Source of the DNA: Myxococcales bacterium
Lineage (GTDB): Bacteria > Myxococcota_A > UBA9042 > JABWCM01 > BTVJ01
Length of the DNA stretch: 64,000 nt
Assembly (NCBI GenBank): GCA_045863395.1
Contig: BTVJ01000019.1
Location: forward strand, 37,221-101,220
Direction of reading: 5' to 3'
Shown here piece by piece: positions 41,568 through 59,846 of this stretch. The stretch's first letter is position 1; each line of letters starts with the position of its first letter. The notes under the pieces were generated by a model. It saw nothing but the letters and a program-made list of their open reading frames with translations, searched no databases and had not been told where the DNA came from. A program made the position numbers and the translations under genes.

Positions 41568-42026
41568 ATGATCATCCAACGTATGGGGTGGCTCTCACGC
41601 GCGAGCGCTCTGGGGCTGGTCGCGGGGCTGGCTGTCGGCCTGCAACCGTCGGAGACGTTCGCCACCAAAGACCAGGCGAGGCGCGCGGCGCTCGCCACCG
41701 CGATCTCCCTCGAGGCGGTCGGGTTCCGTTTTCGGGACCAGTTCAACATGGGGTTGCTGCGCAGGGGCCAGATCGCCAAAGTGCGTCTGACGCTGTCGGC
41801 GGGAACCGACTACGCGCTCGTTGCAGCCGGGTGTGGCGATGCCTACGACGTAGACGTCCACCTCTTCGACGAGAACGGCAACCTCATCGACCGAGACCGG
41901 GACGCAGCCCCTATCGCCGTCGTTCAGGTGACGCCCAAGTGGACCGGGACCTTCTACGCGCTGGTCACCATGTACGACTCCACTTACAACGGCGCCCATT
42001 ACACGCTTGTGACGGGCTACAGGTAG
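41568..42026 (+). CDS. Small secreted PPC-like (pre-peptidase C-terminal) domain protein
   Basis: GGAGG RBS; signal peptide; L.AG.DY...GC...DVDVHLFDENGN..D...P..TG.F. Confidence 0.75.
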   Translation: MIIQRMGWLSRASALGLVAGLAVGLQPSETFATKDQARRAALATAISLEAVGFRFRDQFNMGLLRRGQIAKVRLTLSAGTDYALVAAGCGDAYDVDVHLFDENGNLIDRDRDAAPIAVVQVTPKWTGTFYALVTMYDSTYNGAHYTLVTGYR

Positions 42027-42096
42027 ACTCGGAGCGTAACCGCGTCCCGCGTTCGGAACCCGCATTCGCAGTCTCTGCGACATCGCTCTGCACCGT

Positions 42097-44649
42097 CTAC
42101 AGCCGTCTCCGAAGAACAGGTGGATCCTGATGCCGAAGCGTCGCCGCAGCGAGCAACAGGAAGAAAAGGGCCTGCGTCCCCATAATCGCTAGTGAACGAC
42201 CGGTTCCTCCAACGCGGTACTGCCTCGCCTCCATGGGAAACGACTCCCACGCCCGCTGCTCGTCACCCGACAAGCGCCTGTGTTCTTGATTGAACACGGC
42301 CTCCGCCGCCCACCGCACAGTCGTCGGTGCCTCCAGGACCAGCATCGTGACCCTCTTGTCCATGACGTGTCCGTCACTGTCGCGTCCAGGCTCGATGAAG
42401 AAGCCGCTGAGCATGAGCTGCGCCACCACGAGGATCGGGACGAAGTTCAGCGCGCCGGTCGGTGTCGAGACAATGCACGACAGCGCGAGCCCCATGGCCG
42501 CGGCTATGATCGAAGTGAGTGCACACACCAGGAATACGGCGCCCACATCTGCTGCGAACCCGAGGACCGCCGTAACCGGAAGGACGAGGACCGCGACCTG
42601 CGCCACGGAAATCGCGCCGAGGACGAGTACCTTCGACAGCAGGTAGACAGGAATCCCCAACCCCACCATTCGTTCGCGCCGGTAGATGGGCCTCTCCGCT
42701 ACGACCTCCTGTGCGCAATTGAAAAGGCCGAAGAACAGCGAACTCATGACCAGGAAGAGCATCGGGGTTGCCCTCTTCGACGCCCCCTTGTCCCCGATGT
42801 CGAAATACGCCATCAGCAGCAGCCCGCAGATGACGATTGGCGGTAGCCCATAGCGTCGCAGCGAACCGGGCGTCAACTTCACTGTCGCCAGACGGCCGAC
42901 CAGCGCGGCGAGCTGCACCCACGGGGACGGCCGCGGCCTCTCCAGCGTCTCCGGCGGAGGAGCCTCCCGGTCGCAGCGCTCCGTCACCCACTTTCGGCAC
43001 ACCTCCGATTGCTGGTAGCGCTGAGCCCAATCCTCAGGCAACCGCTCCTCCAGGGCTTCGAGCACTCCCTCCGGCCCGGCCTCGACCGACTTGAACCACT
43101 CGTAGCTCTCCGGGTCTGGCGGTCCGAACCAAGCGAGTCGTCCACCCCTTCCAAGGACCATGGCCAGGTCGAAGCTGGCGTATAGCCTGACCGACGGCTG
43201 ATGGATGGTCATCAGGACCGGACGGCCCTTGTCGGCTATCCTGCGGAAGACACCGACCACCTCGGCAGTATCCCTGGAGGAGAGCCCCGAGGTGGGTTCA
43301 TCCGCGATGAGGATCAACGGGTCGGTGACAAGCTCCACGCCGATGTTCACACGCTTCCGTTGGCCGCCCGAGAGAATCTGCTCACTTGGGCTCCCGATGC
43401 GAAGATTGCGCTGCCCCGTCAGGTCCAGGCTCTGCAGGACCGACGAGACACGCCGGTGCAGCTCATCGTCACTTACGCTGTCCGGGAGCCGCATCCGCGC
43501 TGCATAGTAGAGCGACCTCTCCACGGTCAGGTCGGCATGAACCAGGTCGTCCTGCGGAACGTAGCCGATGAGCCCGCGGAACTTCTCGAAGTCTCGGTGC
43601 AGGTCGGACCCGTTCACCACAACCCGCCCCGAGTCTGCAGGTGCGTCCCCCGTCAGCGCGCGCAACAACGTGGACTTGCCGGCGCCGGACGGACCCATGA
43701 TGCAGGCAACCTCAGACGAGTAGATGCTGAACGACACGTCCTGCAGCAACCACTTGGCCGCGCCCGTTCGGCGATCCGCCACGCACCGGCCCAGCCCCTC
43801 TACGCGAAGGTCGATCTGCCCGAAGATGGGCTCGACTTGGACTCGACCTTCCTTACCGACACGTACCGTGTGGTGCGCAAGGTGGAGCACACCCCCTTGC
43901 CGCACCACCCGGTCGCCCACCCGTACTCCCTCGACGTCTCTTACAATCCGCACCTTCCGCGAGACTTCACCCGACGGAACCGCAATCTCACACCCCGTGT
44001 CGCTCCCGATAGTCAGACCGACACCGGTCTTGATCTGCACACCCGACTCCGCTTCGGCAGCCTCGGCCTGACGAATTCCATCGACGAGGAGGCTGACCGG
44101 GAGCCGATGGTTGCCGAGGTACAGCACCCCGTCGGTCGGAACCTCGCGCCACGACTCGCCTACCCGCACACCGCTTCGGTGACCGATGAACGTGCCGTTT
44201 CGGCTTCCGAGGTCTCGGACGCGCAGGGCCCCCGGCCGGCCCGTTACCTCAAGGTGGCGTGCCGACACCTGTGGAAAGGGCAACCTGATGTGCGAGTCCG
44301 CACTGCGTCCGACGCGCCAGATTGTGCTCAAGGGTGAAGGTTCGAACTCTCGCTTGTCGCTCGGGGCCCGCTGCGCACGCCGTTGCAGCAGGAGAGCAGC
44401 GGGAAACGCGCACGTCCCCAAGTAGAGCATCGCATCGTCGGACACCGAGACCCACTCGCGGCCGACACGCTGCCCCCATGGCCCTCCAATCCTGGTGCCG
44501 TTCGTGCTCCCTCGGTCCCGAATCTGGAGAGAGCCGGGCCCACCCCTTACATCGAGGTGCAGGCTCGACACCTGCTCGTCCGCAATACAGATGTCTGCGC
44601 GCTCGCTTCTCCCAACCGTCCTGGTGTCTCCAGACGCCCCACTACTCAT
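42097..44649 (-). CDS. FHA-FHA-ABC exporter fusion (Rv1747-like: FHA domains, NBD, ABC-2 TMD)
   Basis: VGRS..VSSLH..GSTNGT and VGRS..VSARH..GSRNGT; GPSGAGKST, YVPQDD, LSGGQRKR, DEPTSGL; C-terminal TMs with ERPIYRRER. Confidence 0.92.
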   Translation of the reverse strand: MSSGASGDTRTVGRSERADICIADEQVSSLHLDVRGGPGSLQIRDRGSTNGTRIGGPWGQRVGREWVSVSDDAMLYLGTCAFPAALLLQRRAQRAPSDKREFEPSPLSTIWRVGRSADSHIRLPFPQVSARHLEVTGRPGALRVRDLGSRNGTFIGHRSGVRVGESWREVPTDGVLYLGNHRLPVSLLVDGIRQAEAAEAESGVQIKTGVGLTIGSDTGCEIAVPSGEVSRKVRIVRDVEGVRVGDRVVRQGGVLHLAHHTVRVGKEGRVQVEPIFGQIDLRVEGLGRCVADRRTGAAKWLLQDVSFSIYSSEVACIMGPSGAGKSTLLRALTGDAPADSGRVVVNGSDLHRDFEKFRGLIGYVPQDDLVHADLTVERSLYYAARMRLPDSVSDDELHRRVSSVLQSLDLTGQRNLRIGSPSEQILSGGQRKRVNIGVELVTDPLILIADEPTSGLSSRDTAEVVGVFRRIADKGRPVLMTIHQPSVRLYASFDLAMVLGRGGRLAWFGPPDPESYEWFKSVEAGPEGVLEALEERLPEDWAQRYQQSEVCRKWVTERCDREAPPPETLERPRPSPWVQLAALVGRLATVKLTPGSLRRYGLPPIVICGLLLMAYFDIGDKGASKRATPMLFLVMSSLFFGLFNCAQEVVAERPIYRRERMVGLGIPVYLLSKVLVLGAISVAQVAVLVLPVTAVLGFAADVGAVFLVCALTSIIAAAMGLALSCIVSTPTGALNFVPILVVAQLMLSGFFIEPGRDSDGHVMDKRVTMLVLEAPTTVRWAAEAVFNQEHRRLSGDEQRAWESFPMEARQYRVGGTGRSLAIMGTQALFFLLLAAATLRHQDPPVLRRRL

Positions 44650-44754
44650 CGTCCCACCTTCGTCGCGTCCCAGGGGCGTCGAAGTTCCCTGCAATCCTTG
44701 GAGTGAAGTGGCCCCGTACCGCGACCGGGCCCTTGTGTGCCAGTGGATTCGAGG

Positions 44755-46911
44755 TCACAGTACCTCGAGCAGGACCTTGTAGAAGTGCAAGGACTCGCCG
44801 TCGTCGCAGAGCACGGGACCAGCATGCCAAGGCGACTCGAAAACGCGGGTCTCGCGCGTGGTCGTGCAAACGCGCCCGAGGAACTCCTCTTTTCGGTGGT
44901 AATAGGCGTCCTCCTTGGCGATGTCGAGAATACGCACCTTGCGCTTCGGCGCTATGGGCTCCAAAGCGGCCCTTGACGCAACGCCTGCTCTGGAGGATAC
45001 GCTGCCCTGAGACACACTCCCCCCGGCTGCCGAATTGCTCGGGCGCCACCCACCCCTCGCGGGAGCCGCCAAGCCGCGGTCAGTCAAGGCTACCCGATAG
45101 AACGTATGCCCCGTCCCATCGCAATCGAGGACTCCTGAGTGCCATCGGCCACGCACCGTCGTCGCGATGCTGGTCGTACATGTCTTGCCAACGAGGTCCC
45201 CGCGGTTCTCGTAGTACGCATCGGCTGGGTCTATGGCCAGGACCGACACCGCCCGACCAGGTCCGATGGAAGAGTTGGACTCGGTGGCGGTCGCCGCCAC
45301 CTCGGCGGCCGCAGCCGCCGCGACCGCAGCGGCCGAGACAGCCGCCTGCGACACCGGGGTCTTCCCCAGCGGGGGCACAGCGACAGGGTCGAGCCCCAGA
45401 TCTTTGAGGGCGACCTTGTAGTAGTAAGGCGACACCGAGCCACACTTCAGGGTGGCGGCGTGCCACCCATCCCCCTTGTGGGTGGTGCGATCCACTGTAA
45501 CGCACGTCTGGCCAATCAGTTCGTTCCGATCCCCGTAGAAGGCGTCTTCCGGGTGGATCGCGACGATGCGCACCATGTGATTCTCCTCCACGTGGCTCGT
45601 GGCCCGTTCGTCGCCCGACTCGCTGCTCGCGGCCCCTCCCCCTTGGCCCCCGGGATTGGTCCCCACACCGGGGGGATCGTCATTCAACCACCGCTCCAGC
45701 TCTGCCGCCCCCTGTGGGTCCAGAGTGCCAGGGGCGTTTTCTGATGCTGACTGAGGAGCTTGCACGTCCTGCTTCGGACGCTCCGGGGCCTCGCCCGCTC
45801 GCCCGGCGAAGTGCATCGCGCCGAGACCCAGTACGGTGACGATGGCGGCGCCGGCAGCAGCGTAGAGCGCGGGCTGGCGCCATTGCTGGTCACCTTCGCG
45901 ACGCGATTGCTCGCGTGCTCGGTCCTCCGTGGGCTCAGCTCGACCGGTCAGCGCGAGCTGAAGCTCGCGGACGCTGCGGAAGCGGTCCATCGGGTCCAGG
46001 CTCATCGCCCGACTGACTGCGTTCGACACGGCCAGGGAGACCCGCTCACCGAGAAGATCCCGGAGTGCCGGAATCGACGTCCCTCGCTGCCGCTCGAGTG
46101 CCCCGGGCGGTATCCGCCCAGACATCATCCGCCAGAGAGTTGCGCCCACGGCGTAGACGTCCACCGACCAGTCCTGAGGCGTGCTCCTCACATACTGCTC
46201 TGGAGGTGCGAAACCCTCGGTGAGGACAGCGGAGACCGAGCGCGTTGCAGCCCCAGTGACGTAGCGAGCCTCACCGAAGTCCAGGAGAAAGACCGGGCCT
46301 TCCTTCGTGACATAGATATTTGCGGGTTTGATGTCACGGTGGATGATCCCCCGCGCATGCGAGGCCCGCAGAGCGTCCAGCACCGGAAGCGCGATCCGCA
46401 GGGCGTCTGCCTCCGAGAGCCGTCCCTGATTGCGCCTGAGCAAGTCCTCCGCGGTCATGCCATCCAGGTACTCCATGACCATGTAGCCAGTACCGTTGGC
46501 CGGAAAGACGTCGTATACCGTCACGACGTTCGGCTCCTTGCGGAGCTGCGCAAGGGCGCGAGCCTCTTTCAGGAAGCTCTCCAATCCTTGGACAAACGAG
46601 TCGCGCTCGCCGGGCGACCGAGGGCGCACCGTCGAACCGTCCCGGTTTCGGGTGGCCTCACCTCGGGGCAGATACTCCTTGATGGCGACTCGTGCATCCA
46701 GCTCCCCGTCTCGCGCCAGGTACGTGACACCGAAGCCGCCGTGCCCCAGGACCCGCCCCAAAAGGTAGCGGCCATGCAGCACGGTACCAGCCGGCAAAGT
46801 GAGGACGTCGCCATCATCCGTCCCTCGCGACGGTCGACCACAGCGATCACACGTCACGCCTCCCTGGCAAGGCTCGCAGCAGGTGAGACAGATCGTGGTT
46901 CCGTTTGCCAT
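44755..46911 (-). CDS. Membrane Ser/Thr protein kinase with N-terminal Zn ribbon and three C-terminal ~60-aa repeats
   Basis: CLTC..CDRC; LGHGGFG, VAIKE, HRDIKPAN, DFG, APPEQ, DVYAVG; TM helix; three homologous extracytoplasmic repeats. Confidence 0.92.
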   Translation of the reverse strand: MANGTTICLTCCEPCQGGVTCDRCGRPSRGTDDGDVLTLPAGTVLHGRYLLGRVLGHGGFGVTYLARDGELDARVAIKEYLPRGEATRNRDGSTVRPRSPGERDSFVQGLESFLKEARALAQLRKEPNVVTVYDVFPANGTGYMVMEYLDGMTAEDLLRRNQGRLSEADALRIALPVLDALRASHARGIIHRDIKPANIYVTKEGPVFLLDFGEARYVTGAATRSVSAVLTEGFAPPEQYVRSTPQDWSVDVYAVGATLWRMMSGRIPPGALERQRGTSIPALRDLLGERVSLAVSNAVSRAMSLDPMDRFRSVRELQLALTGRAEPTEDRAREQSRREGDQQWRQPALYAAAGAAIVTVLGLGAMHFAGRAGEAPERPKQDVQAPQSASENAPGTLDPQGAAELERWLNDDPPGVGTNPGGQGGGAASSESGDERATSHVEENHMVRIVAIHPEDAFYGDRNELIGQTCVTVDRTTHKGDGWHAATLKCGSVSPYYYKVALKDLGLDPVAVPPLGKTPVSQAAVSAAAVAAAAAAEVAATATESNSSIGPGRAVSVLAIDPADAYYENRGDLVGKTCTTSIATTVRGRWHSGVLDCDGTGHTFYRVALTDRGLAAPARGGWRPSNSAAGGSVSQGSVSSRAGVASRAALEPIAPKRKVRILDIAKEDAYYHRKEEFLGRVCTTTRETRVFESPWHAGPVLCDDGESLHFYKVLLEVL

Positions 46912-46934
46912 CGCCAATCTCTACGGAGTTGTGT

Positions 46935-48209
46935 CTACGCTCGGGTCGAAACACGCAACGAAAACCGATTCGACCCCAATTCGATGGTCGCACCGCCCTG
47001 CACCGGGGTCCAGGACCCCGGGCGGAGAGCGACGCCGTTGACTTTCGTCCCGCGAGACGCCTCCAGCTCACGTGCCTCCAGCGCGCCCCCTGGGGTGACG
47101 CGGAGCTCCAGGTGGCGCTTCGAGACCCCCGGCCAGGGCTTGTCCTTCGCCTCGTCCGGCACCACGAGGGCGCATGCTCCGGCGTCCCTGCCTATGACGA
47201 GGGATGCACCCGCCGCGAGGGGGATGCACTGGTTCTTGAGGTCGATCGGACCCTCCAGGATACGGACTTCCCACTTCGCGGCAGCGTTGATGATGTTCCC
47301 GTGCTCGTCCCGGATGAAGCCCACCGGGCCCTGCACCGCGTGCTTCTGAGGATCGGGCTGCTTCCACCGCTTCGTGATGTTCGAGACCGTCGCTGGCCGA
47401 CGTAGGACCAGCACCATCCCCGTGATCGCCAGCAGACCGGCAGCGATGACCATGGCGATGACGAGGCGCGGCGGAGCATCCGGGTCGCATGGGGTCGTGA
47501 CCGTCGATGGCTTTGCGCCGACCTTGTTCAGGATGTCGACCACCTCGGAGGACGCCACGGCCGCGTTGATGCCGACCGCCACCAACGGGTTGACCTTGAG
47601 AGTCGACACACCGGCTACCCGCCCGCACGCATCGAACACGGGTCCGCCGCTGTCTCCCTCGTTGACCAGCACGTCGATCTGCAGGAGCCGTCGGTCCGCC
47701 TGCTCGTCGTCCAGATACCGCTGTACGGATCCCACGGCGGAGCTGGGCTCGACCCAAGCGCGATTGCTCCCCGCCAATCGGTCCGCGGTACCCGGAAACC
47801 CGATCTTCGTCAGGCGTGACTGCTTGGGCGCTTCTGTGCCAGACGCAATCGTGAGGGCGGGGGGGACGTCGCCCGTGAAGCGCAGGACGGCGAGATCCTT
47901 CTTGTCGTTGGCCTCCTCGATGGTGGCCTGAACGACCTTGGCGGGGCCAAAGTGAATCTGGAGGCCGTCATCCCCCGGAGGCTTGCCGATACAGTCTTCG
48001 ATGACGTGCTGGTTGGTGATGAGGAGTCCCGACGGGTCCACCACGAAACCCGTTCCCGTGACCGCTCTGCCACCTCCAAGGGGGCATACCACACGGCCAA
48101 CGCTCTTCTCCAGATCCTGCACTTTCGGTGCGTCGGTCTTCTTGCAGCCTGTGATTGCCAGCAGGGAGACGAACGCGAGAGCGGTGGCGTATCCTGGTCG
48201 AACTCTCAT
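46935..48209 (-). CDS. Trypsin-like serine protease - TM - FHA fusion
   Basis: Lipobox-like LLAITG-C; GTGF, TNQHVI, DLAVL, GDSGGP catalytic triad; TM; IGRD..VSKRH..GTKVNG. Confidence 0.88.
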   Translation of the reverse strand: MRVRPGYATALAFVSLLAITGCKKTDAPKVQDLEKSVGRVVCPLGGGRAVTGTGFVVDPSGLLITNQHVIEDCIGKPPGDDGLQIHFGPAKVVQATIEEANDKKDLAVLRFTGDVPPALTIASGTEAPKQSRLTKIGFPGTADRLAGSNRAWVEPSSAVGSVQRYLDDEQADRRLLQIDVLVNEGDSGGPVFDACGRVAGVSTLKVNPLVAVGINAAVASSEVVDILNKVGAKPSTVTTPCDPDAPPRLVIAMVIAAGLLAITGMVLVLRRPATVSNITKRWKQPDPQKHAVQGPVGFIRDEHGNIINAAAKWEVRILEGPIDLKNQCIPLAAGASLVIGRDAGACALVVPDEAKDKPWPGVSKRHLELRVTPGGALEARELEASRGTKVNGVALRPGSWTPVQGGATIELGSNRFSLRVSTRA

Positions 48210-49933
48210 TGGTCACCTCCCTCTTGGGGGACATCGGTCGACCGGGGCTTCGGGTCCATCTCGGGCCGAGTTTTCGGGGCGACGTCACTGCTTGGCGGCG
48301 GCGACGCGGGGGCTGTGACGGTTCCCGGGGGTGGATCCACAGCGCCTTCCTTGGCCCCGGCAGGCGACGAGTTCGTCTCTTTGGATCCCGAGCCACCGGG
48401 TGGAACGTCAGGTCCCGGCGTAGAACCCGGAGCATTCTTCGTGTCGCCGGGTACGCCGGTAAGGGAAGGCGCCGCGGGGTCGGGAGCTGGAGAGACTGGC
48501 GGCGCGTGCAGCCCAGTGCTCGTCTCGCCGACCGCAGTGCCAGGTGCCGTTCCCGCCTTGTCGGCCTCAGCCTGCGGTTGCGTCAGTCCACCGGGCGCCG
48601 GTGTGGCGTCGGTCGCTTTGGCGCCAGTGGTGGTGCTCCGAGTATCGCCGTCGGTTCCTCGCCCCGGTCGGACGTCGCCGCGTTTGTCGGCCTTGGCGTC
48701 GCCCGGCGAATCGTGAACGCCAGCGTCCTTGATCTTGGACGGGTCCTCCCCAGACTTTGGAGTCTGTCCGCCGTCCTTTGGCCGCGCTCCGGTACTCGAA
48801 CCGGTGCCCTCCTTCCGCTTCTTTGGGTCCGGGGTCCTCCCCGTCTGCTTATTGGGTGGATTGGACTCTGCAGCACCCGTCTCCTTGGCGGTGTCGCCGG
48901 CTCGGACTCCGCTGGCAGAGTCTCCCGCGGCGTCCTCCTCCCCCTTCTGCTTCGCCGCTTCCGACCCGGAGTTCTTCCCACCCGTTCCGACGTCTTTCTC
49001 ATCCTTCTTGGCGCCCGCATCGGCATCAGGATGCACCCTGACGGGCTCAACCGGCCCCTCCCCCCCGTCCTTCCGCGAGGGCCAGAACGCCACCAGCAAC
49101 AGCAGGACCGCCACCAGCGCCAGGGCAGCACCCAACCAGCGCCTGGGGCTGGAGGAGGCCGTCGCGGCAACGGCCGCGCCCGCGACCCGAAAGACGACGA
49201 CCGAGACGTTGTCCTGCGCCGGCCGCTCCTTGATCAGCGTCGCCTTGACGAGAGCATGGCATGCTGCATCGGCATCAGCCGCCTGTGACACGATCCGCGC
49301 GATGTCCCCGTCGGACAGGGCGTCGGTGAGACCGTCGCTGGCGAGGACGAGGGAATCGCCTGCCTTCAGTGATTGGGGGCTCGTGATGTCCACGTCCGCA
49401 AGACGCGGCTGCCCCAGGTAGGCCGTCAGGTGGGCCCGCTCGCCCTCCCGTCGCCTGGCGTCTGCCGTGTTGACGGCACCGGTCGCCAGGCCGCGGTCCA
49501 TCTCCGCCCCCAACGTGTGCTGACGGTTGAGCCGGAGCACGCTCTCCGCGCGGCACAGGATGGCGACGCTGTCGCCCACGGACACGCACTGAAATCCCCG
49601 CTCGCTGACCCAACAGGCGACCAACGTGGTGCCCATGTCCGCCCCAGACGCTGACGCCGCCGCAACAACGGCATCGTTGGCCACCCGCACACAGTGTCCC
49701 AGGACCTCGGCCCTGTCCTGGGCTCGGTCTCGCGAACGCAACGCCTCCGTGAACGCGTCCACCGCGATGACGCTCGCCTGGGCGCCGCCCTCGTGCCCGC
49801 CCATACCGTCGGCTACGACGAGCATGTAGCCACCCGACCCGTCGGGGATGGTGCCGAAGTAGTCCTGCTGCTCCTTCCGGGCCCCAATGTCCTGGTGGTT
49901 GCCAATGGAGACTTCCATCTGTCCCAGCTTCAC
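48206..49933 (-). CDS. PP2C/PPM Ser/Thr phosphatase with TM and long low-complexity C-terminus
   Basis: GARKEQQD, VADGMGGH, MGTT, VGDS, LASDGL, QDNVS; TM WLGAALALVAVLLLLVAFW; GTGA overlap. Confidence 0.9.
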   Translation of the reverse strand: MKLGQMEVSIGNHQDIGARKEQQDYFGTIPDGSGGYMLVVADGMGGHEGGAQASVIAVDAFTEALRSRDRAQDRAEVLGHCVRVANDAVVAAASASGADMGTTLVACWVSERGFQCVSVGDSVAILCRAESVLRLNRQHTLGAEMDRGLATGAVNTADARRREGERAHLTAYLGQPRLADVDITSPQSLKAGDSLVLASDGLTDALSDGDIARIVSQAADADAACHALVKATLIKERPAQDNVSVVVFRVAGAAVAATASSSPRRWLGAALALVAVLLLLVAFWPSRKDGGEGPVEPVRVHPDADAGAKKDEKDVGTGGKNSGSEAAKQKGEEDAAGDSASGVRAGDTAKETGAAESNPPNKQTGRTPDPKKRKEGTGSSTGARPKDGGQTPKSGEDPSKIKDAGVHDSPGDAKADKRGDVRPGRGTDGDTRSTTTGAKATDATPAPGGLTQPQAEADKAGTAPGTAVGETSTGLHAPPVSPAPDPAAPSLTGVPGDTKNAPGSTPGPDVPPGGSGSKETNSSPAGAKEGAVDPPPGTVTAPASPPPSSDVAPKTRPEMDPKPRSTDVPQEGGDQ

Positions 49934-51639: not shown

Positions 51640-52259
51640 TGAGCGCCCCCCCAACGGAATCTGTCGCCACAGAGAGGCACGAACATCAGCGTTGTGCAGC
51701 CGATCTCCACCCGGTCATAGGCGACCAGATCCTGCGACTCTCCGCGCAGCGCCTTGCCATTGATATAAACGAGGTTGCGGCCCCGGCCCTGCTCGATCCA
51801 GTACACCGCCCCCCGCGGATCGAACACCACCGCGCAATGCCCATCCCGCGAAATGGTGTCGTCCCCGGTGATCTGCACCCGGTTGTGCGGGTCACGCCCC
51901 ACCTCGTTGCGCCCCTCGACGATGCGGTAGTCCCGCCCCATGGAGGGGCCGTCGATGCAGACGAGCCACGCTACGACCGGGTCGAAGCCGGACACCGCGG
52001 AGGTGCCCCGGTCGACTCGACGCGTCATGCCATCGACTGCGGTCGCCGCGCGGCGCGTGTCAGTGCGGCTCTGCTCCGTCCTTCCCCCCTGGTCCGCCCG
52101 CTGGGTCTTTCCGTCGTGGCTGGTCCCCCGCGTGTCGTTGACCCCCCGCGTATCGGGGATGACCCCGCCGAGGATGGGCCCCTGACGGCAGTAGGGGCAG
52201 CTCGCCTGCTGGTCCGAGTTGAAGAAGTGCTTGTCCTGCTCGCAGCGGATCATGGCCAT
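51636..52259 (-). CDS. Zn-ribbon + Thr-rich linker + FHA domain protein
   Basis: CEQDKH...CPYC; PVVAWLVCIDG; VGRD..ISR.GH; N.VYING. Confidence 0.88.
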   Translation of the reverse strand: MAMIRCEQDKHFFNSDQQASCPYCRQGPILGGVIPDTRGVNDTRGTSHDGKTQRADQGGRTEQSRTDTRRAATAVDGMTRRVDRGTSAVSGFDPVVAWLVCIDGPSMGRDYRIVEGRNEVGRDPHNRVQITGDDTISRDGHCAVVFDPRGAVYWIEQGRGRNLVYINGKALRGESQDLVAYDRVEIGCTTLMFVPLCGDRFRWGGAQ

Positions 52260-52373
52260 GATGCTGTGCTCCTCTCGATGTTCAGCCCGACTCTCCTTCG
52301 GCGGGGAGTCAGGACGCCTTCAGACAGCTCGCAGGCCCCCGTTGGGGGGCCCGTGTTCCTGCACTCCGCGCCC

Positions 52374-53117
52374 TCATCGGCGCACGATGGACACGTTTCT
52401 CTTCTCTCCCGTGCTCATGTTCCAGACGAAGGTCTCTGCACTGGTCCCATTGCAGGGACTGACACGAACGCTCGCCGTGTTGGGTGAGCCGTCTCCCTCG
52501 TTCAACGCCTGCGCCACGAAGTAGCTCACTCCCTGAGGCAGGTTCAGCGTGAACCGCGCCACGTTTGGCAAGACGCGGAGCTTGAGGTTGGAGGCAAGCT
52601 CCGTCGCACCGTGCCGCAGGTCGACCCGATCACCATCCTCGGCCTCGTGATCCCAGACATCGACGACAACGGTGTCTGCCTCGGTGTGGCACATGCCGAT
52701 GGACTCGCCAGCGGCCTGGCGGGCGGCATCGGCCTGCTGCTGTGCCTCGGCCGCAGCAGCCCGTGCCTCGTCGGCGGCCGCTTGCGCCGCCCGCGCCCGC
52801 GCCCGCGCGGCGGCGGCGTCGGCGGTGGCGGAGTCGGCCGCAGCCTGCGCCTCCCGTGCGCGGCGGTCTGCTTCGTCGGCCTGCGCCCGCGCGGTCCGCG
52901 CCTGCCGCTGGGCCTCCTCCAGCGCCTCCATGGCCTCCTTCATCCTGGCGACCAACGTCTGGACCAGGGACTCCGCCTTCTCGGCCCGCTTCTTGTGGGA
53001 GCTGGTCGCCTGAACGGAGATGAGATACAGCACGAGGATTGCGCCGAGCGCGGAGCAGATCACGTCCAGCATCGACAGGTTGAAGACGCTGATCTCGCGA
53101 GACGGGCGGCGCTTCAC
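52374..53117 (-). CDS. ExbD/MotB-like single-TM protein (conserved Asp) with Ala-rich coiled coil and C-terminal beta domain
   Basis: VFNLSMLDVICSALGAILVL directly downstream of ExbB-like gene; coiled coil; VWDH..EDGDRV. Confidence 0.72.
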   Translation of the reverse strand: MKRRPSREISVFNLSMLDVICSALGAILVLYLISVQATSSHKKRAEKAESLVQTLVARMKEAMEALEEAQRQARTARAQADEADRRAREAQAAADSATADAAAARARARAAQAAADEARAAAAEAQQQADAARQAAGESIGMCHTEADTVVVDVWDHEAEDGDRVDLRHGATELASNLKLRVLPNVARFTLNLPQGVSYFVAQALNEGDGSPNTASVRVSPCNGTSAETFVWNMSTGEKRNVSIVRR

Positions 53118-53139
53118 CTGCAGACACCCTCCCCGGCCC

Positions 53140-53928
53140 CTACTTGACCGCCTGCGGCACGTAGAGTCTGTTGACCAGGTTGCGCAGGCAGTAGTCGGAG
53201 CTGCGGTTGATCGCCTCCTCCTCGCTGGTCTGGGTGAACTGGGTCAGGAGCACGAGGATGGCGCTCTGGCACAGGGCCAGGATCGTCGAGTAGAAAGCCG
53301 TCGACAGGCTCGCAGTGATCTCGCCCGTCTTGGACGAAAGGTCCTCACCCGCGCCCTGGATCACCGACAGCGCTCCCGCGATGCCGACCACCGTCCCGAT
53401 GAAGCCCATGGTCGGGATCAGCCACGCCAGATAGCGGAGCAGCGTGTAGCGAAGGTCGACACGGTGCAGCTCGTGGTCGACGAGAGAGGTCAGGATCTGG
53501 TGCGTCTGGTCGGTCGCCTGGTTCGCGTGGAAACACAGCACGCACTGGTCCACGATCTGCGCGAGGAACGAGCCCCGCGTCTGCGCACCCTCCAGGGCGG
53601 ACCGCCGGATGGGCCCGAGGTCGGAGCCGACGAGGACGGTCCGATCATCCTCCGGCAGGATTCGAGCCGTGCTGGCGACGCCCTCCACTGCCGCCGCACC
53701 CCGGCGATAAACGATGTCACCGACGCCGGCCGCGAACAGCAGCGTCATCAGGTTCTGGATGGTGAACGGATACGGGAAGACCTGAAGCTCAGGGACATTG
53801 CGGTCGAGCAGCAGGAGGCCCACCCACTCCCCGGGGGTGACTGCTGCGCTCAGGACTCCGATCAGCCCTGCGGCCACCGCGACAGACAGCCCGATGCACG
53901 CGAACCGGTTCTGCGACAGCCCTTGCAC
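53140..53928 (-). CDS. MotA/TolQ/ExbB proton channel family protein
   Basis: LIPTMGFIGTVVGI..AL and LSTAF..T.LAL C-terminal helical hairpin; two N-terminal TMs. Confidence 0.9.
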   Translation of the reverse strand: MQGLSQNRFACIGLSVAVAAGLIGVLSAAVTPGEWVGLLLLDRNVPELQVFPYPFTIQNLMTLLFAAGVGDIVYRRGAAAVEGVASTARILPEDDRTVLVGSDLGPIRRSALEGAQTRGSFLAQIVDQCVLCFHANQATDQTHQILTSLVDHELHRVDLRYTLLRYLAWLIPTMGFIGTVVGIAGALSVIQGAGEDLSSKTGEITASLSTAFYSTILALCQSAILVLLTQFTQTSEEEAINRSSDYCLRNLVNRLYVPQAVK

Positions 53929-53938
53929 GCCCTACCTC

Positions 53939-54313
53939 CTACGCACACCCGTGCGCACACGGCGACCCTGCCGGCTTGATGTGACCATTGGCGCAACGAT
54001 CATACCGTTGATCGGGGGACGGACCCTCACGCACGGCGCTCTTCTCCATCGCCTTCAACTGCACGATGAGCGCATCGACCGGAACGACGATCCCACCGAA
54101 GGAGACGGTGGACCCGCTCACAGCCGTCGCGTCCGACACCCGCCTCGACATCGCCCCGTCGACGATGAACGTGCCGTTGGTAGAGTCGCGGTCTCTCACG
54201 CGGATCTGAGCGCCCTCCAAGGATACGGTCGCGTGCCGGAACGACACCATCGCGTCGTCCAGCCGGATGTCACACGTCTCACCGCGACCTATGGAGTACT
54301 CTCGACCCGCCAC
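53939..54313 (-). CDS. Small FHA domain protein with C-terminal Cys/His Zn-ribbon
   Basis: IGRG..CDI..VSFRHA..DSTNGT; RCANGH...CAHGC; GTG start after GAGGT (54319 is an alternative). Confidence 0.85.
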   Translation of the reverse strand: MAGREYSIGRGETCDIRLDDAMVSFRHATVSLEGAQIRVRDRDSTNGTFIVDGAMSRRVSDATAVSGSTVSFGGIVVPVDALIVQLKAMEKSAVREGPSPDQRYDRCANGHIKPAGSPCAHGCA

Positions 54314-54486
54314 TGGCACACCTCGTTGGCTTCGCCTCCGACTCGGCGGGGCCCGCTCGGGCCGACAGGCTCTACGACAGCGCCGACGGTACCGCAAGGG
54401 CCGCTCCCCTGTCAACGCACAATTCGGGCCTTGACGGCTTGGACGGGACCGAGTCTACTGTCGCCCTGTCGTGCGAACGGAGCACC

Positions 54487-55212
54487 ATGAAGCGACGCCC
54501 CGCCCGCGAGATCAGCGTCTTCAACCTGTCGATGCTCGACGTGATCTGCTCTGCGCTGGGAGCCGTCCTGATCCTGTATTTGATCGTTGCGCTCCAGCAG
54601 AAGAAAGACGGGAAGGACCTTCGTGAGTGTCTCGTCGAGCTGAAGGAGTGCGAGACAGAGCCGTGCGCCACACGCTGCCCGTGCGACCGGGAGTGCCCCT
54701 GCGCACAGCGCTGCCCGTGCCCCGACATCGACTGCGCCAGGCAGTGCCCGTGCGCCGCCAACTGCCCCTGCGACAGCAATTGCCCGTGCGACCAGTACTG
54801 CACCTGCCCCAATCCGCCGCCGCCATTCGTCGTGGTGCTCGTGCGGTGGCGAGGAGCGGGCGTGGACATCGACCTCCATGTGCGCAACCCCACGGGCGGC
54901 GAGTGCTCCTTTCGTTCCCTCACGGGCTGCGCGACGGCCGGAAACGCCGAGGTGGTCAACGACTACCAGCAGGGGGGTGTGGACGAGACCTTCATCGGCC
55001 GCCGCATCCCGACGGACGACCAGTGGTGGACGGTGAGCTACAACTACTACACCGGTAATGCCGGAGTCACGGTGGAGGGCTGGGCCTACTACCCGGACGG
55101 GACCCACGTCATCGCGCCCGTGAACCTTGGCCCCATGGACCGGGGCAAAAAGCGCGCCGTCCTCCGATTCAAGGCGAACAGGGACGGTCGAGTCCAGTTC
55201 TCGGTGCCATAG
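54487..55212 (+). CDS. Second ExbD/MotB-like protein with CxC repeat stalk and C-terminal DUF2135/YfaP-like domain
   Basis: GGAG RBS; VFNLSMLDVICSALGAVLIL; (CPCxxx)n; VRW...VDIDLHV.NP.G...V.YNYY. Confidence 0.72.
   Translation: MKRRPAREISVFNLSMLDVICSALGAVLILYLIVALQQKKDGKDLRECLVELKECETEPCATRCPCDRECPCAQRCPCPDIDCARQCPCAANCPCDSNCPCDQYCTCPNPPPPFVVVLVRWRGAGVDIDLHVRNPTGGECSFRSLTGCATAGNAEVVNDYQQGGVDETFIGRRIPTDDQWWTVSYNYYTGNAGVTVEGWAYYPDGTHVIAPVNLGPMDRGKKRAVLRFKANRDGRVQFSVP
54648..54810 (+). repeat. Approx. 18-bp in-frame repeat coding C-P-C-x-x-x
   Basis: TGCCCGTGC/TGCCCCTGC recurs at 6-codon spacing: RCPCDRECPCAQRCPCPDIDCARQCPCAANCPCDSNCPCDQYCTC. Confidence 0.85.
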
Positions 55213-55232
55213 GGTCGCCTGAGCGAGGCAGC

Positions 55233-56399
55233 ATGATCGATCCGCAAGCGCTCTGCCTCCACTGCTGCCTGCCTCGCCGCCGCGCCGGTGGATGCCGCGA
55301 CTGCGGGGCGGAGGCACCGGGCCTCCCCGTGGAGGCCACCAGCACGGAGCTGGCCCCCGGCACCGTGCTGAACAAGAAGTACGTCGTCGGCCGCGTGCTG
55401 GGGGCTGGCGGCAACGGGGTGACCTATCTGGCAGCCACTCTCGACAAAGGCGAGCGCCGGGCCATCAAGGAGCACGTCCCGAAGGATCTCGCGACCCGGT
55501 CCAAAGACGGCCACACAGTCGTACCGCTCAAGGACACGACGCAAGGCGAGATCGACGAGGAGCGCGGCAAGTTCCGCAAGGAGGGGGATCGCCTCGTCCG
55601 CTTCGCCGGCCACCCGCGCATCGTCCGGGTCTTCGAGACCTTCGAAGAGCACGGCACGGCCTATCTCGTGATGGACTTCGTGCCGGGCAGCACGCTGGGC
55701 GACCGCCTTCGGGAACACCGGGGTGCCTTCCGGGAGCCGGAGGCCGTCGGCTGGGCCATCGAGCTCTGCGCCGCCGTCCAGGAGGTCCACGCCCGGGGCC
55801 TCATCCACCGGGACATCAAACCCTCCAACGCCCTTGTGGCCGACACCGGCACGCTGATGCTCATCGACTTCGGCAACGCGCGCGAGACCCACACCAAGCG
55901 CGGCCATACCCGCGTGTGGACGGACGGCTTCGCGCCCCCCGAGCAGATCCTGGGGCACGACACCCAGGGCCCATGGACCGACGTCTACGGCATCGGCGCC
56001 ACGCTCTACGCCATGCTCCTCGGAGAGGCGCCTCCCTACGCAGAGCGTCGCGGCACAGACGGCCTCCCGAAGCTCGGCGCGGCGGTCAAGCGAGGCCGGA
56101 TGCGCCAGGAGACCGCGGTCCTCATCCAGGCCGCTCTCGCCCTCGACCCGAAGCACCGCCCCCAGTCCGCCGAAGAGGTCCTGGCGAACCTCCAGGCGCT
56201 CTATCCGTCTGCGAACGCACCGAAGCCGCCCCTCCCGCCAGACCCGGTGCCCCTTCCCGACCCGGTGCCGCCGCCAGATCCGGTGCCGCCACCGAACCCG
56301 GACCCGACACCGATCTCCCGGGACCGGTTGGTGACCCTTGCGATCATCGTTGCGCTGGGCCTTCTGTGGACGCTGGGAGTCTATGTTGCCATCGACTAG
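55233..56399 (+). CDS. Ser/Thr protein kinase with N-terminal Zn ribbon, Pro-rich linker and C-terminal membrane anchor
   Basis: CLHC..CRDC; LGAGGNG, AIKE, HRDIKPSN, DFG, APPEQ, DVYGIG; PDPVP repeats; terminal TM. Confidence 0.92.
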   Translation: MIDPQALCLHCCLPRRRAGGCRDCGAEAPGLPVEATSTELAPGTVLNKKYVVGRVLGAGGNGVTYLAATLDKGERRAIKEHVPKDLATRSKDGHTVVPLKDTTQGEIDEERGKFRKEGDRLVRFAGHPRIVRVFETFEEHGTAYLVMDFVPGSTLGDRLREHRGAFREPEAVGWAIELCAAVQEVHARGLIHRDIKPSNALVADTGTLMLIDFGNARETHTKRGHTRVWTDGFAPPEQILGHDTQGPWTDVYGIGATLYAMLLGEAPPYAERRGTDGLPKLGAAVKRGRMRQETAVLIQAALALDPKHRPQSAEEVLANLQALYPSANAPKPPLPPDPVPLPDPVPPPDPVPPPNPDPTPISRDRLVTLAIIVALGLLWTLGVYVAID

Positions 56400-56531
56400 C
56401 GGGAGGACTTCCGGGCCTGTGAAGTTTCCGGTATCCGGCAGCTCGCTATCGGCGTATGATGGCCGCCGCTATCTGACTGTGTGGGTCGCTCGATTCCGCC
56501 ACTGGCGCCCACGGTCAGACGAGGGTTGAAC

Positions 56532-58583
56532 ATGGCCAGCGCGAAACGAGTGTGCCTCTGGTGTTGTGACGAGACCGAAGGCGTGGTGTGCCAGCGCTGC
56601 GGGCATGGGGACGCGGCTGCGCGGGACGACGATGCGCTGGTGCTGGACGCGGGCACCGTCCTTCAGGAGCGCTATCTGATCGGCCGGCCGCTCGGCAAGG
56701 GCGGGTTCGGGGTCACGTACATCGCGCGGGACCTCAAGCTGCGAGCGCGGGTCGCGGTGAAGGAGTACATGCCACGGGAGTCCTCGTCCCGCAGCCGGGA
56801 TCGCCTCACCGTGCGTCCGAGCCGGGGAATGGACGCCGCAGCCTTTGCCGACGGGCTCACTAGCTTCCTCGATGAGGCGCGCCACCTGGCGCAGCTCCGC
56901 GACGCGCCCAACGTCGTCGACGTCTACGACGTGTTCGAGGCGAACGGCACCGGGTACATGGTCATGGAGTACCTGGAGGGCGTGACCATCGAGGGGCTCC
57001 TTGCTCTGCGGGGTGGGCGGTCCGGCAAGGAGGCCGCGCGGCTCTCGCCGGCCGAGGCGGTGCCGATCATCGTGGCCGTGCTCGACGGGCTCCGCGCCAC
57101 GCACGAGGCGGGGATCGTCCACGGAGACATCAAGGCCGCCAACGTCTACGTCACCGACAAGGGGCCGATCTACCTGCTGGACTTCGGCGCATCTCGGCGT
57201 ACCATCGGGGTCGCTACCCGCTCTGTACAGGCCACGTTCTCGCCAGGCTACGCGCCGCCCGAGCAATACAACTCCGACTCTGCGCTCACGGAACGGTCGG
57301 ACCTGTACGGGGTCGGTGCCACGTTGTATCGCATGCTGTCCGGCAGTGTGCCGCCCGAGGCCCCGGCGCGTACTCGGGTTCCCATGCCGCCGCTCCGGGA
57401 TGTCGCCGGGTTGCGCGTGCCTCCGGCGCTCTCGGACGTCGTCGACCGGGCTCTGTCCCTGGATGCGTCGGACCGGTTTGCGTCGGCGCGGGAGATGCAA
57501 GTTGCGCTGGTGGAGGCTATGGGCGGGCGGCCGCCGTCGCCGTCTCCCCGACCACCCGTCCCCGCGAAGAGACGCCCCCTCCGACTGATCGCGATCAGCG
57601 CGACGCTCGGGGCGCTAGCCCTGGTGGGCGGCACGTTCGTGGTCCTGCAGAGGGACGACAGCAGCTCGCCGCCGCCGGCTCCCGCCCCCCAGGTGGCCGG
57701 CACAAGCCCGATTTCTCCCCCGGCCAGCGACGCCCTGCCTCCGCCTCCCTTGGTGCCCATCGCCTGCGCCAGGGACTGCCGGGAGCGCGCGTGCGGAGGC
57801 GACGGCTGCGGCGGGTCCTGCGGTACATGCGGCGATGAGAGCCTGTGCACGGCCCTTGGCCAGTGTGTGCCGCTTCCGGGCGAGCGGATGGTCAGCATCC
57901 CGACTGGAGTCTCTCTCCTCGGGTGCAACGCAGACGCGGCGACCTGCGGAGGCGACACCAAACCGAGCACCATCACGGTACCCGCGTTCCTGATCGACCG
58001 GACGGAGGTGACCGCAACGCAGTTCGACCTGTGCGTGCGTGCGGGCAAGTGCTCTCCTCCAGGTTCTTCGGGAAATGGGTGCGCCGCCGGCCCGGAGACT
58101 ACCTTCCGCGTAGCAGGTCGCGAATACATGCCCATCAACTGTGTGAGCTGGCACCAGGCCTGCGCCTACTGCGCCTGGAAGGGGAAGCGACTCTGTTCGG
58201 GCGACGAGTGGGAGCGGGCGGCCCGGGGGGGCTGCGAGCACAGTGGCGGGAAATGCGACCAGACCCGGCGCTACCCGTGGGGAGACGAAACGCCCCGCTG
58301 CAGCCAGGCGGTGATGAACACGCCTGGCGGGACCTGCGGCCCACCGGGCCTCGACCTGAGCGGCGGGCGCCCAGAAGGCGCCAGCCCCTTTGGCGTGCTC
58401 GACATGGCCGGAAACGTGTGGGAGTGGACTGGCGACTGCGCCTCCGTGTCCGATGAAGCGTTCATCCGGGGCGGGGGCTTCGCCAATGGACCGAGCGCGC
58501 TCGTCTCGTGGGCGCAACAAACCGAGCCAACCGATACGGCGACGGACTACATCGGGTTCAGGTGCTGTGCGGCAGCTCCTTGA
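56532..58583 (+). CDS. Membrane Ser/Thr kinase with extracytoplasmic FGE-sulfatase (SUMF1-like) domain
   Basis: CLWC..CQRC; GKGGFG, HGDIK, DFG, APPEQ; TM; IDRTEVT, EWERAARG, YPWG, DMAGNVWEW, GFRCC. Confidence 0.92.
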   Translation: MASAKRVCLWCCDETEGVVCQRCGHGDAAARDDDALVLDAGTVLQERYLIGRPLGKGGFGVTYIARDLKLRARVAVKEYMPRESSSRSRDRLTVRPSRGMDAAAFADGLTSFLDEARHLAQLRDAPNVVDVYDVFEANGTGYMVMEYLEGVTIEGLLALRGGRSGKEAARLSPAEAVPIIVAVLDGLRATHEAGIVHGDIKAANVYVTDKGPIYLLDFGASRRTIGVATRSVQATFSPGYAPPEQYNSDSALTERSDLYGVGATLYRMLSGSVPPEAPARTRVPMPPLRDVAGLRVPPALSDVVDRALSLDASDRFASAREMQVALVEAMGGRPPSPSPRPPVPAKRRPLRLIAISATLGALALVGGTFVVLQRDDSSSPPPAPAPQVAGTSPISPPASDALPPPPLVPIACARDCRERACGGDGCGGSCGTCGDESLCTALGQCVPLPGERMVSIPTGVSLLGCNADAATCGGDTKPSTITVPAFLIDRTEVTATQFDLCVRAGKCSPPGSSGNGCAAGPETTFRVAGREYMPINCVSWHQACAYCAWKGKRLCSGDEWERAARGGCEHSGGKCDQTRRYPWGDETPRCSQAVMNTPGGTCGPPGLDLSGGRPEGASPFGVLDMAGNVWEWTGDCASVSDEAFIRGGGFANGPSALVSWAQQTEPTDTATDYIGFRCCAAAP

Positions 58584-58592
58584 GGAGGCATC

Positions 58593-59846
58593 ATGCGAAG
58601 CTCGTTGCTGTGGGTGGCGCTCTCGTGGATGGCGCTGGGCGGCTGCAAGACCGGCGGCGATCCCACGCCACCGTCGGGCGCTCCGGGACCCGCCGGGGGT
58701 GCGACGGCTCCTGTGCAGGCCGCGCCCGGCGAGCCGGCCAAGGACCTTGGCGCCCAAGGGGCGACTGCCACACAGGACCCGGCCGGGCCCGGCAAGCCGA
58801 CCGCAGCTCCAGACCCTGCCGCTGAGGCGCTTGCGCCGCCAGCGGGTTCGCCAGCCCCTGGTGCACCTGAAGGGGCAGAACCGACTGCCCCCACCGCGCC
58901 GTGCAAGGAGCGCAATGTCCTCCAGGAGATCCGCATCAACCAGGTGCTGCGCATCGCAACGGAGGAAGACAACGAGCCCATGTGCTTCAAGGACGACGAC
59001 GATCAGTGGACCGGCTTCGAGTACGCGCTCATGGTGGGGCTCGCCAAACAGCTCGACGCGAAGCTCGAGATCGTCATCACGGAGTTCGACGACTTCCCGG
59101 CGGCGCTCTGCGAGGGGCGCGCGGACCTGGCTGTCGGCGGCGTGTTTCCTACAGACGACTGGCCGGGCGTCGCCTACTCGAAGCCCTATCTGGAGACGGG
59201 CCTCGCCCTCTTCGTCGCAAAGGATCGGGTGCGGGACTTCCCAAACACGGCCGCCCTTGCCGGGCGGACCATCGGCATCACCAAGGGCGACAGCTACCCG
59301 CGCGACTTCATCGAGGGGCTCAAGCTCTCGCCAGCGCCGATCATCCGAGAGTACACCTGGTCAGAGGAAGTAGAGGACAACTACTTCACCAAGCTCTTGG
59401 ATCGCGAGATCGAGGCGTTCGTCTACGACTATCCATTCGGCATCGTGGAGGCGCGGAAAGAGCCGTATCGCGGGAAGGTGCTCATCGCGGCGCACAATCT
59501 TAAGGAGGGGCGCTATGCAGTGGCCCTTCCGGCGTCAGACACGCCGCTCCTCTCGGAGGTGGACCGGGCCGTCGAGAAGTTCCGAGGCAGCGCCGACGAG
59601 CCGAATCCCGCCTACGCCGCGCTCCTTCGCGAATATTTCTCCCAGGGCACGGAGACCGTCCAGGCTCTCAACACAGTCCCCTGCCCCGCCGCCAGAACGT
59701 ACACGGTCAAGTCGGGAGACACCCTATACCGCATCTCCTCTCGCACCACGCCCCCCATGTCCTGGCGGACGCTCTACGAGGCCAACAAGGCCCGCATCCC
59801 GAACCCGAACATCATCGAGGTCGGGCAGGTGCTCTGCGTGCCCTGA
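58593..59846 (+). CDS. Lipoprotein: family-3 solute-binding domain + C-terminal LysM
   Basis: GAGGAGG RBS; lipobox ALGG-C; WTGFEY.L..LAKQL, YSKPYL; YTVKSGDTLYRIS...LYEAN..IPNPNII.VGQVL. Confidence 0.88.
   Translation: MRSSLLWVALSWMALGGCKTGGDPTPPSGAPGPAGGATAPVQAAPGEPAKDLGAQGATATQDPAGPGKPTAAPDPAAEALAPPAGSPAPGAPEGAEPTAPTAPCKERNVLQEIRINQVLRIATEEDNEPMCFKDDDDQWTGFEYALMVGLAKQLDAKLEIVITEFDDFPAALCEGRADLAVGGVFPTDDWPGVAYSKPYLETGLALFVAKDRVRDFPNTAALAGRTIGITKGDSYPRDFIEGLKLSPAPIIREYTWSEEVEDNYFTKLLDREIEAFVYDYPFGIVEARKEPYRGKVLIAAHNLKEGRYAVALPASDTPLLSEVDRAVEKFRGSADEPNPAYAALLREYFSQGTETVQALNTVPCPAARTYTVKSGDTLYRISSRTTPPMSWRTLYEANKARIPNPNIIEVGQVLCVP

Follow-up and report, generated by a model that had tools for sequence, protein, structure and literature searches.

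A gene cluster common to several phyla that encodes a predicted ion-driven motor, its own phosphorylation switch and a membrane-tethered protease

The cluster considered here occupies positions 41568-59846 of a 64,000-nt window of DNA, the whole stretch that was analysed, from contig BTVJ01000019.1 of a Myxococcales bacterium (assembly GCA_045863395.1, positions 37,221-101,220). An earlier note, drawn from the letters of this DNA alone, had described it as 14 genes for three Ser/Thr kinases, a PP2C phosphatase, at least six FHA domains in five proteins, a series of surface modules and an ExbB-like channel with two Asp-bearing partners, and this inventory is borne out by Pfam searches and by the reading of motifs. 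All 14 open reading frames (ORFs) were confirmed from the ORF list and codon-bias gene calls, and their products include three Pkinase domains, one PP2C, Trypsin_2, VWA and FGE-sulfatase domains, SBP_bac_3 combined with LysM, an FHA-FHA-ABC-ABC2 protein and a MotA_ExbB channel subunit. The six FHA domains are six of the 36 FHA matches in the genome. By motif reading the catalytic motifs are unbroken in the kinases, the phosphatase, the trypsin domain (His65/Asp105/Ser187), the metal-ion-dependent adhesion site (MIDAS) of the vWA domain and the ABC domain. Two arms diverge between 54319 and 54487, and the genes running from 52259 to 46935 are linked by three 4-nt overlaps, given GTG starts at 51639 and 49933, as the earlier note had it. 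A sigma-70-type promoter was searched for and none was found. The GC content of the locus is 67.3%, compared with 71.7% in the rest of the window.

The region is not a mis-assembly, since contigs from two other DNA runs cover every one of its 30 bins. The metagenome runs that hold it are labelled bioreactor, wastewater, sludge, aquatic and biofilm, and contigs from RNA libraries (two runs of one study, in which DNA was possibly present) extend over 30 and 29 of the 30 bins. The 23 upstream and seven flanking ORFs of the window, of which six and one respectively were without a Pfam match, gave no Pfam match to type VI secretion system (T6SS), Tad, TonB-receptor or Zor genes, in agreement with the earlier note.

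The comparison of this locus with others was anchored on the channel gene. A profile built from 57 homologues gave at least 539 confirmed matches in GTDB genomes, the best 80 of which were kept as related loci; gene content was counted within 10 kb of the channel, and loci of at least 19 kb (n=52) are referred to as long loci. As controls, 20 weaker MotA/ExbB matches were taken from relatives and from this genome, including one that falls inside the clade on the channel tree (L095) and this genome's own second channel, paired with a transpore helix (TPH)-vWA protein (L093). Of the 52 long loci, 40 have at least three of four signalling parts next to the channel, versus 0 of the 20 controls, and 31 contain all five core classes. 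Among the 80 loci, which come from Pseudomonadota, Acidobacteriota, Latescibacterota, Thermodesulfobacteriota, Myxococcota, Planctomycetota, Verrucomicrobiota and other phyla, a TPH partner is present in 71, FHA in 63, a kinase in 52, PP2C in 51, trypsin-FHA in 42, kinase-FGE in 11 and vWA-FHA in 6, and an FHA adaptor is present in 37 of the 52 long loci. The small FHA gene is directly upstream of the channel in 51 of the 77 loci with enough DNA. The order of the left arm (small FHA, channel, partner, adaptor, vWA-FHA, PP2C, trypsin-FHA, kinase) is the same in one related locus, L067, and is matched by another, L059, up to the end of its contig.

An eight-role core of small FHA protein, channel, TPH partner, FHA adaptor, PP2C, trypsin-FHA, kinase and, sometimes, vWA-FHA thus recurs across phyla, and these genes are almost certainly a co-inherited unit, as the earlier note had supposed when it set a conserved unit against chance accretion. 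The same note had counted the FHA-ABC exporter, the LysM-SBP protein, the triplicated domain and the convergent gene among the parts of the machine. None of these is found in the 80 related loci, and they are accordingly regarded as local additions. It is clear that the cluster is real and common to several phyla, and that it comprises a predicted ion-driven motor, a phosphorylation switch of its own and a membrane-tethered protease. Its members are listed in Table 1.

Table 1. Genes and repeats of the cluster, with window coordinates and the basis for each assignment
Feature	Position	Strand	Basis and occurrence
Small, probably exported protein; PPC-like beta-sandwich look-alikes	41568..42026	+	No Pfam match; Atlas feature score 0.97 to hypothetical clusters; 0/80 loci
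FHA-FHA-ABC-ABC2 exporter	42097..44649	-	Pfam FHA x2, ABC_tran, ABC2_membrane; Walker and signature motifs; 0/80 loci
Membrane Ser/Thr kinase with three ~65-aa small beta-barrel copies outside the membrane	44755..46911	-	Pkinase; catalytic motifs, transmembrane (TM) helix
Periplasmic trypsin-like protease, TM, cytoplasmic FHA (core)	46935..48209	-	Pfam; His-Asp-Ser kept; 42/80 loci
PP2C phosphatase, TM helix, long low-complexity tail (core)	48206..49933	-	Pfam PP2C_2; motifs; 51/80 loci
Periplasmic vWA, TM, cytoplasmic FHA (occasional member)	49930..51639	-	Pfam; MIDAS DVSKS; 6/80 loci
Soluble FHA adaptor: Zn-ribbon-like N-terminus, Thr-motif linker (Thr79), FHA (core)	51636..52259	-	37/52 long loci
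TPH partner 1: Asp18 helix, ~100-aa coiled coil, beta-sandwich head with conserved acidic loop	52374..53117	-	Alignment with five Myxococcota homologues; AlphaFold2 (AF2) model
TolQ/ExbB/MotA-like channel subunit, 262 aa (core anchor)	53140..53928	-	PF01618 above cut-off; pore-helix alignment
Small stand-alone FHA protein (core)	53939..54319	-	Pfam FHA; mostly directly upstream of channel gene
TPH partner 2: Asp18 helix, Cys-rich repeat stalk, TerD-like (DUF2135/YfaP-related) beta-sandwich head	54487..55212	+	AF2; fold match
Ser/Thr kinase with C-terminal membrane anchor	55233..56399	+	Pkinase; motifs, TM
Membrane Ser/Thr kinase with outer FGE-like domain	56532..58583	+	Pkinase and FGE-sulfatase; architecture in 11/80 loci
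Lipoprotein-like SBP_bac_3 and LysM protein, probably a local addition	58593..59846	+	Pfam; 0/80 motor loci
98-nt inverted repeat	53019-53116 / 54488-54585		85%; 5' ends of both partner genes, on either side of the small FHA and channel genes

To the right of the cluster, at 59850-63845, lies an unrelated operon for a polyamine-type ABC importer (by Pfam) that converges on it.

The channel subunit matches PF01618 at 49.5 bits, against a cut-off of 22.9, and aligns to the pore helices of PomA and TolQ. It carries a Pro-x-x-Gly-x-x-Gly-Thr pore motif plus a second Thr, and these two residues, Thr179 and Thr215, are kept in 80 of 80 related loci, Thr179 having been part of a scan pattern and Thr215 not. 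In ExbBD, TolQR and MotAB, a pair of TPHs is enclosed by five channel subunits and is turned by the flow of ions. Neither window partner has any Pfam match, ExbD (PF02472) and OmpA included; no tolR, exbD or motB match by Pfam lies in the locus, and none of the genome's eight ExbD matches is on this contig. In both partners a basic stretch precedes a hydrophobic helix that carries Ser15 and Asp18, after which come the stalk and then the head. For partner 2, both residues are invariant in 31 of 31 sequences, and the TPH Asp is retained in 70 of 74 partners of related loci. A predicted complex of four channel chains (residues 50-258) with two partner 2 chains (residues 1-52), a tetramer and not a pentamer, scored 0.15 and 0.11 against a mark of 0.32 and counts neither for nor against a motor. 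It is quite probable that the channel and its partners form an ion-driven 5:2 motor.

The second channel of this genome, a distant one, lies with a TPH-vWA partner at L093:8537-10773 (G000 C73) and has no signalling genes around it. In an alphaproteobacterial-type subclade (L004:10747-12129, L071, L077:10637-11944 and L079:10656-12503) the TPH Asp is replaced by Ala, with a Lys one turn later; signalling genes are missing from these loci, two of which have Sel1 or TPR neighbours, and the subclade may represent a dead motor or a different ion chemistry. The channel of L071, from a record titled Leifsonia xyli, is almost the same as that of Bosea (branch 0.03), probably through a binning error.

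Among the TPH partners in the 80 loci, 30 have vWA heads, 28 have heads of the partner 2 type, five of the partner 1 type and 11 others. Neither window partner has a Pfam vWA match, and both of their heads are modelled as all-beta. The partner 2 head, which has a high-confidence AF2 model, matches TerD with a Z score of 11.2 (root-mean-square deviation 3.6 over 126 aligned residues), the next unrelated fold reaching 6.7, and Foldseek agrees on TerD at E 4.9e-4. By sequence, the locus gave no TerY or TerD family match, and a profile search with the partner 2 head alone returned no TerD; the head family touches DUF2135 in six of 34 members at E<=0.1. On the strength of its model, the partner 2 head is assigned a TerD-like fold. 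Its stalk is a Cys-rich tandem repeat (54661-54807) where homologues have a coiled coil. The all-beta model of the partner 1 head, with its conserved acidic loop, best matches PLAT/CBM-like folds (Z 7.3 and 7.1) in a match list dominated by the coiled coil; a word-based search with this head returned only itself, and a profile search of the PDB with the partner alignment returned only coiled-coil noise. The vWA, TerD-like and partner 1 heads would all be plausible metal-bridged grips, judging from the vWA MIDAS, the titles of TerD entries and the acidic loop. Partner relatives were found in none of 39 candidates from viral contigs.

Heads have been exchanged in the course of evolution. The two TPHs of the window are each other's nearest match, with 28 of 32 residues shared and 24 for the next best, a sign that a partner gene was duplicated in this lineage and that heads were exchanged. 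In Lamprocystis, two partners agree at 47 of 52 N-terminal residues and have unrelated heads, and on the channel tree the head type changes at least seven times among 60 labelled rows, 20 of the 80 rows being unlabelled. In a single RNA contig, 53100 is joined to 54505 on the opposite strand. The 32-letter overlap at the join matches an exact run inside the inverted repeat, so that an inversion is no likelier an explanation than an artefact of the assembly graph.

The phospho-signalling parts centre on the soluble adaptor, in which Thr79, Arg122, Ser137 and His141 are invariant in 23 of 23 sequences. Thr79 precedes the FHA domain, whose phosphate-binding residues are kept, and this conservation makes it a likely phospho-site. 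Two subfamilies of adaptor linkers show enrichment of T-[RKQV]-x-[LIVM]: in one, 17 linkers have 30 occurrences versus 3.9+-1.9 in shuffles; in the other, that of the Zn-ribbon adaptors, it occurs 20 times versus 1.8+-1.3 and is present in 12 of 12 linkers. No enrichment was found in 53 trypsin-FHA and vWA-FHA linkers (6 versus 5.3). This pattern fits a role for the adaptor as a predicted multi-site phospho-hub and kinase substrate. The trypsin triad is whole in 31 of 54 homologues, often as one of an intact and degenerate pair, four of the other 23 being alignment gaps, and the window has the intact form only. The outer domains of the kinases are diverse across loci (FGE-like, Sel1, ankyrin, Lcl, PDZ). 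Kinases as such occur in 52 of the 80 loci and the FGE type in 11, and the triplicated repeat of the kinase at 44755..46911, for which only SH3/KOW-like leads under the naming bar were obtained, occurs in none.

Carriers of the cluster are few among relatives (two of 400 other genomes of the phylum). Cultured carriers include Rhizobium leguminosarum BT01 (plasmid pRlBT01d), Lamprocystis purpurea DSM 4197, Paludibaculum fermentans and Nioella ostreopsis. On the channel tree, from which two short and five duplicate rows were dropped, the window channel belongs to a separate clade of 90 rows (SH-aLRT 98), and its nearest relatives are a metagenome locus that shares the partner 1 head, together with Myxococcota rows. 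The sister clade consists of paired TPH-vWA motors, also with an FHA protein and sometimes a kinase. A metagenome scan anchored on the partners recovered mostly this sister type, in which an FGE-like protein and the channel are accompanied by two TPH-vWA genes and often an FHA fusion; L157:866-11002 and similar metagenome loci have TPR, PEGA-FGE-like, channel, FHA fusion and two TPH-vWA genes, sometimes with a kinase. Myxococcota-type loci (L010, L015, L016, L023, L044) have a gene of ~470 aa, the small FHA gene, the channel, a partner with a partner 1-type head and a gene of ~210 aa, and no kinase nearby. Signalling sets related to that of the window are also found apart from the motor. Seven genomes of the Paludibaculum phylum (L204-L210) have motor-less PP2C, trypsin-FHA, adaptor, kinase-FHA, kinase and TPR genes, mostly divergent from an FHA-GAF-cyclase gene. 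An Azospirillum plasmid has a kinase-FHA-PP2C cassette with no channel gene annotated there, and a LysM and SBP protein follows the motor-less cassette of a Ruegeria plasmid.

The best interpretation of these parts, to which we give even chances, is that the core constitutes an ion-driven machine of the envelope under phosphothreonine control. In this scheme the membrane kinases, whose outer domains vary, would detect an envelope or contact cue and would phosphorylate the adaptor at Thr79 and at similar T-[RKQV]-x-hydrophobic sites, and the resulting phospho-sites would gather the FHA domains of the trypsin-FHA, vWA-FHA and small FHA proteins, such that the motor is brought in or ungated. By turning its stalked heads the motor would then exert a pull on a target in the periplasm or outer membrane and offer it to the tethered protease, and PP2C would reset the switch. 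A fuller version must be considered doubtful. In it, a phospho-gated 5:2 ion motor has plug-in heads, and this genome, with two different heads on near-identical axles, could make rotors of a mixed or alternative kind, perhaps switched by inversion of the FHA-channel segment; the motor would pull envelope or foreign targets into the tethered protease as a contact or damage response. Such motors would thereby have a third kind of use, next to transport and to motility or defence sensing. As to function, the most likely role is to survey and remodel the envelope locally in the wake of damage or contact, a role tentatively proposed by analogy with the Esr pathway (PMC13622651) and with conflict systems (PMC7159879) as described in the accessible parts of those sources.

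Several observations weigh against treating motor and cassette as parts of a single machine. The related loci are kin and not independent, so that the counts overstate independence. In ten further adaptor-bearing genomes the channel adjoins in three and has no match in seven, and those seven keep PP2C, trypsin-FHA, adaptor and kinase alone. Plasmids of Leisingera (L200:9701-18866) and Ruegeria (L202:47-15558) join a related kinase-FHA-PP2C set to two or four dynamin-family genes, and 12 of the 52 long motor loci, including Myxococcota, alphaproteobacterial and Verrucomicrobiota sets, are without most signalling genes. The TM helices of 48 trypsin-FHA, six vWA-FHA and 28 PP2C proteins contain no His/SHLS motif, and one of 49 kinases does; the missing TonB-type His argues against TonB-like docking of these accessory proteins on the motor. 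The separate occurrence of cassette and motor and the missing His would be expected if two separable modules often travel together, one a mini-operon for the motor (small FHA, channel, TPH partner), the other a cassette of kinase, PP2C, adaptor and trypsin-FHA that is portable; the two would share regulatory chemistry and not be one machine. Such an arrangement is rather unlikely, given that the two gene sets are interleaved in many orders, for example with adaptor and PP2C between channel and partner, that the motor retains its own FHA gene even without nearby kinases, and that the cassette is found at 0 of 20 control motor loci. The link between motor and cassette is genetic and strong, and since the cassette also occurs without the motor their physical coupling is something we infer only. 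The view that motor and phospho-cassette act in one pathway is slightly favoured.

Other accounts assign the cluster a different purpose or none. In a Zorya-like anti-phage or anti-predator system the motor would be the sensor: a breach of the envelope would engage the heads, ion flow would start, and kinases and protease would respond. The patchy spread within the phylum, the lower GC content, a weak ZorA profile match (E 1.5e-5), the TerD-like fold, an arms race suggested by exchangeable heads and variable receptors, and plausible defence genes adjoining three of 26 loci would all suit such a system. It is nonetheless improbable, as no conserved nuclease, helicase or toxin effector accompanies the 80 loci, the partners are without an OmpA-type peptidoglycan-binding domain, and PADLOC matches at E<=1e-12 were found in just 11 of 138 flanking proteins (from 186 candidate flanking ORFs at the 26 loci), mostly generic enzymes and with no control set; the specific anti-phage or prey role raised in the earlier note thus finds little in the flanking genes. 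Kinase, PP2C and FHA sets control T6SS, and the cluster might be an orphan that regulates or energises a secretion or motility system whose genes lie elsewhere, such as a T6SS (PpkA/PppA/Fha-like) or a gliding or type IX secretion-like system. TssC and TssF matches on another contig (G000 C11:90767-96103) indicate that a T6SS is present elsewhere in this genome, which also has weak GltJ-like matches, and the FGE-like domains resemble GldK. Dependence on T6SS is unlikely because no more than 12 of 50 carrier genomes have TssC, several of the remainder being single-chromosome assemblies, and secretion or gliding genes do not recur beside the 80 loci, so that an orphan regulator is a very improbable explanation. 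Chance accretion of signalling genes has some footing in a genome rich in kinases (78 tblastn matches) and FHA domains, and four genes of the locus are not conserved beside the motor, for which it may hold; for the core it is refuted by content and order conserved across phyla, with overlapping reading frames, and as an account of the whole its probability is close to negligible.

If the envelope machine proposed above exists, 5:2 ion motors would gain control by phosphothreonine signalling, and the periplasmic head of the axle would be a swappable module and not a fixed ExbD, OmpA or vWA domain. The tie to the TerD fold would also give a context to the uncharacterised DUF2135/YfaP-type domain, and Asp18, Thr179/Thr215, Thr79 of the adaptor and Ser187 of the protease provide exact points for test.

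Comparison with known systems places the cluster among motors and signalling modules that have been described separately. No description of the full gene combination was found in the literature, subscription journals being thinly covered, in line with the earlier note, which knew of no characterised system with it; the accessible text of PMC12505986 has no mentions of vWA or FHA and no bearing on the locus, nor does the available part of a preprint on ParA (10.64898/2026.10.19.760177). The kinase, PP2C and vWA combination recalls the Ter stress systems, in which the TerY-P triad has a cytoplasmic TerY vWA followed by PP2C and kinase, and the TerD-like fold of the partner 2 head is a further likeness; unlike that of TerY-P, the window vWA is periplasmic and fused to TM-FHA. 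The exporter has the FHA-FHA order followed by nucleotide-binding and transmembrane domains, which we take to be an Rv1747-like architecture, and is itself not a conserved part of the motor system. The Esr threat-sensing pathway of Actinomycetota, with vWA, kinase/phosphatase and a linker-Thr FHA output (PMC13622651), and the MoxR-vWA/DO-GTPase conflict systems (PMC7159879) also unite vWA with kinase/phosphatase; as far as the accessible parts of these papers go, such systems have an FHA protein whose disordered linker contains a Thr and which often bears a zinc finger, and an energy module in the same locus. That module, unlike the one in the window, is a MoxR ATPase or a GTPase, and MotA and ExbB have no mentions in the available main texts.

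Like ExbB-ExbD-TonB, TolQ-TolR-TolA, MotA-MotB/PomA-PomB and AglR-QS, the window system has a PF01618 channel with the pore motif and a single-pass Asp partner. Unlike Ton and Tol-Pal, it is without an ExbD/TolR-type partner and without a TonB/TolA His/SHLS transducer, and it has a linked kinase/FHA set. With Zorya ZorA-ZorB it shares an ion-motor pair in a patchy accessory locus and the weak ZorA profile match, which covers 85 residues; it differs in a channel of 262 aa without the long ZorA tail and in partners without an OmpA domain, and none of the 14 proteins gave any further Zor match, ZorC, ZorD and ZorE included, at E<=0.001 among the matches listed. The closest precedent is the work of Williams-Jones and colleagues (PMC12204202), the accessible part of which predicts, as a prediction only, TolQ-like/TPH-vWA 5:2 motors and presents AlphaFold 3 models of related TolQ/TPH-vWA pairs with the Asp sitting in the Thr ring. 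The motor core as such is not without precedent. As described there, such motors have a TolQ-like gene with no tolR, exbD or motB beside it, conserved pore threonines and a heterologous partner pair with an Asp helix, all of which are seen in the window pair (near-identical TPHs, different heads), and vWA heads are found on 30 of the 74 partners of related loci; both window partners differ from those motors in having non-vWA heads. The window channel clade (98% support) is separate from the paired-vWA loci, which are taken as the PMC12204202 family, sequence identity with that family being unconfirmed. In the available main text of that paper, kinase, protease and TerD have no mentions, and its one match to 'fha' is FhaC. 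The kind of motor has already been predicted in print, the window lacks its vWA-head feature, and what is new here is a conserved, putative kinase-linked TPH motor with exchangeable heads.

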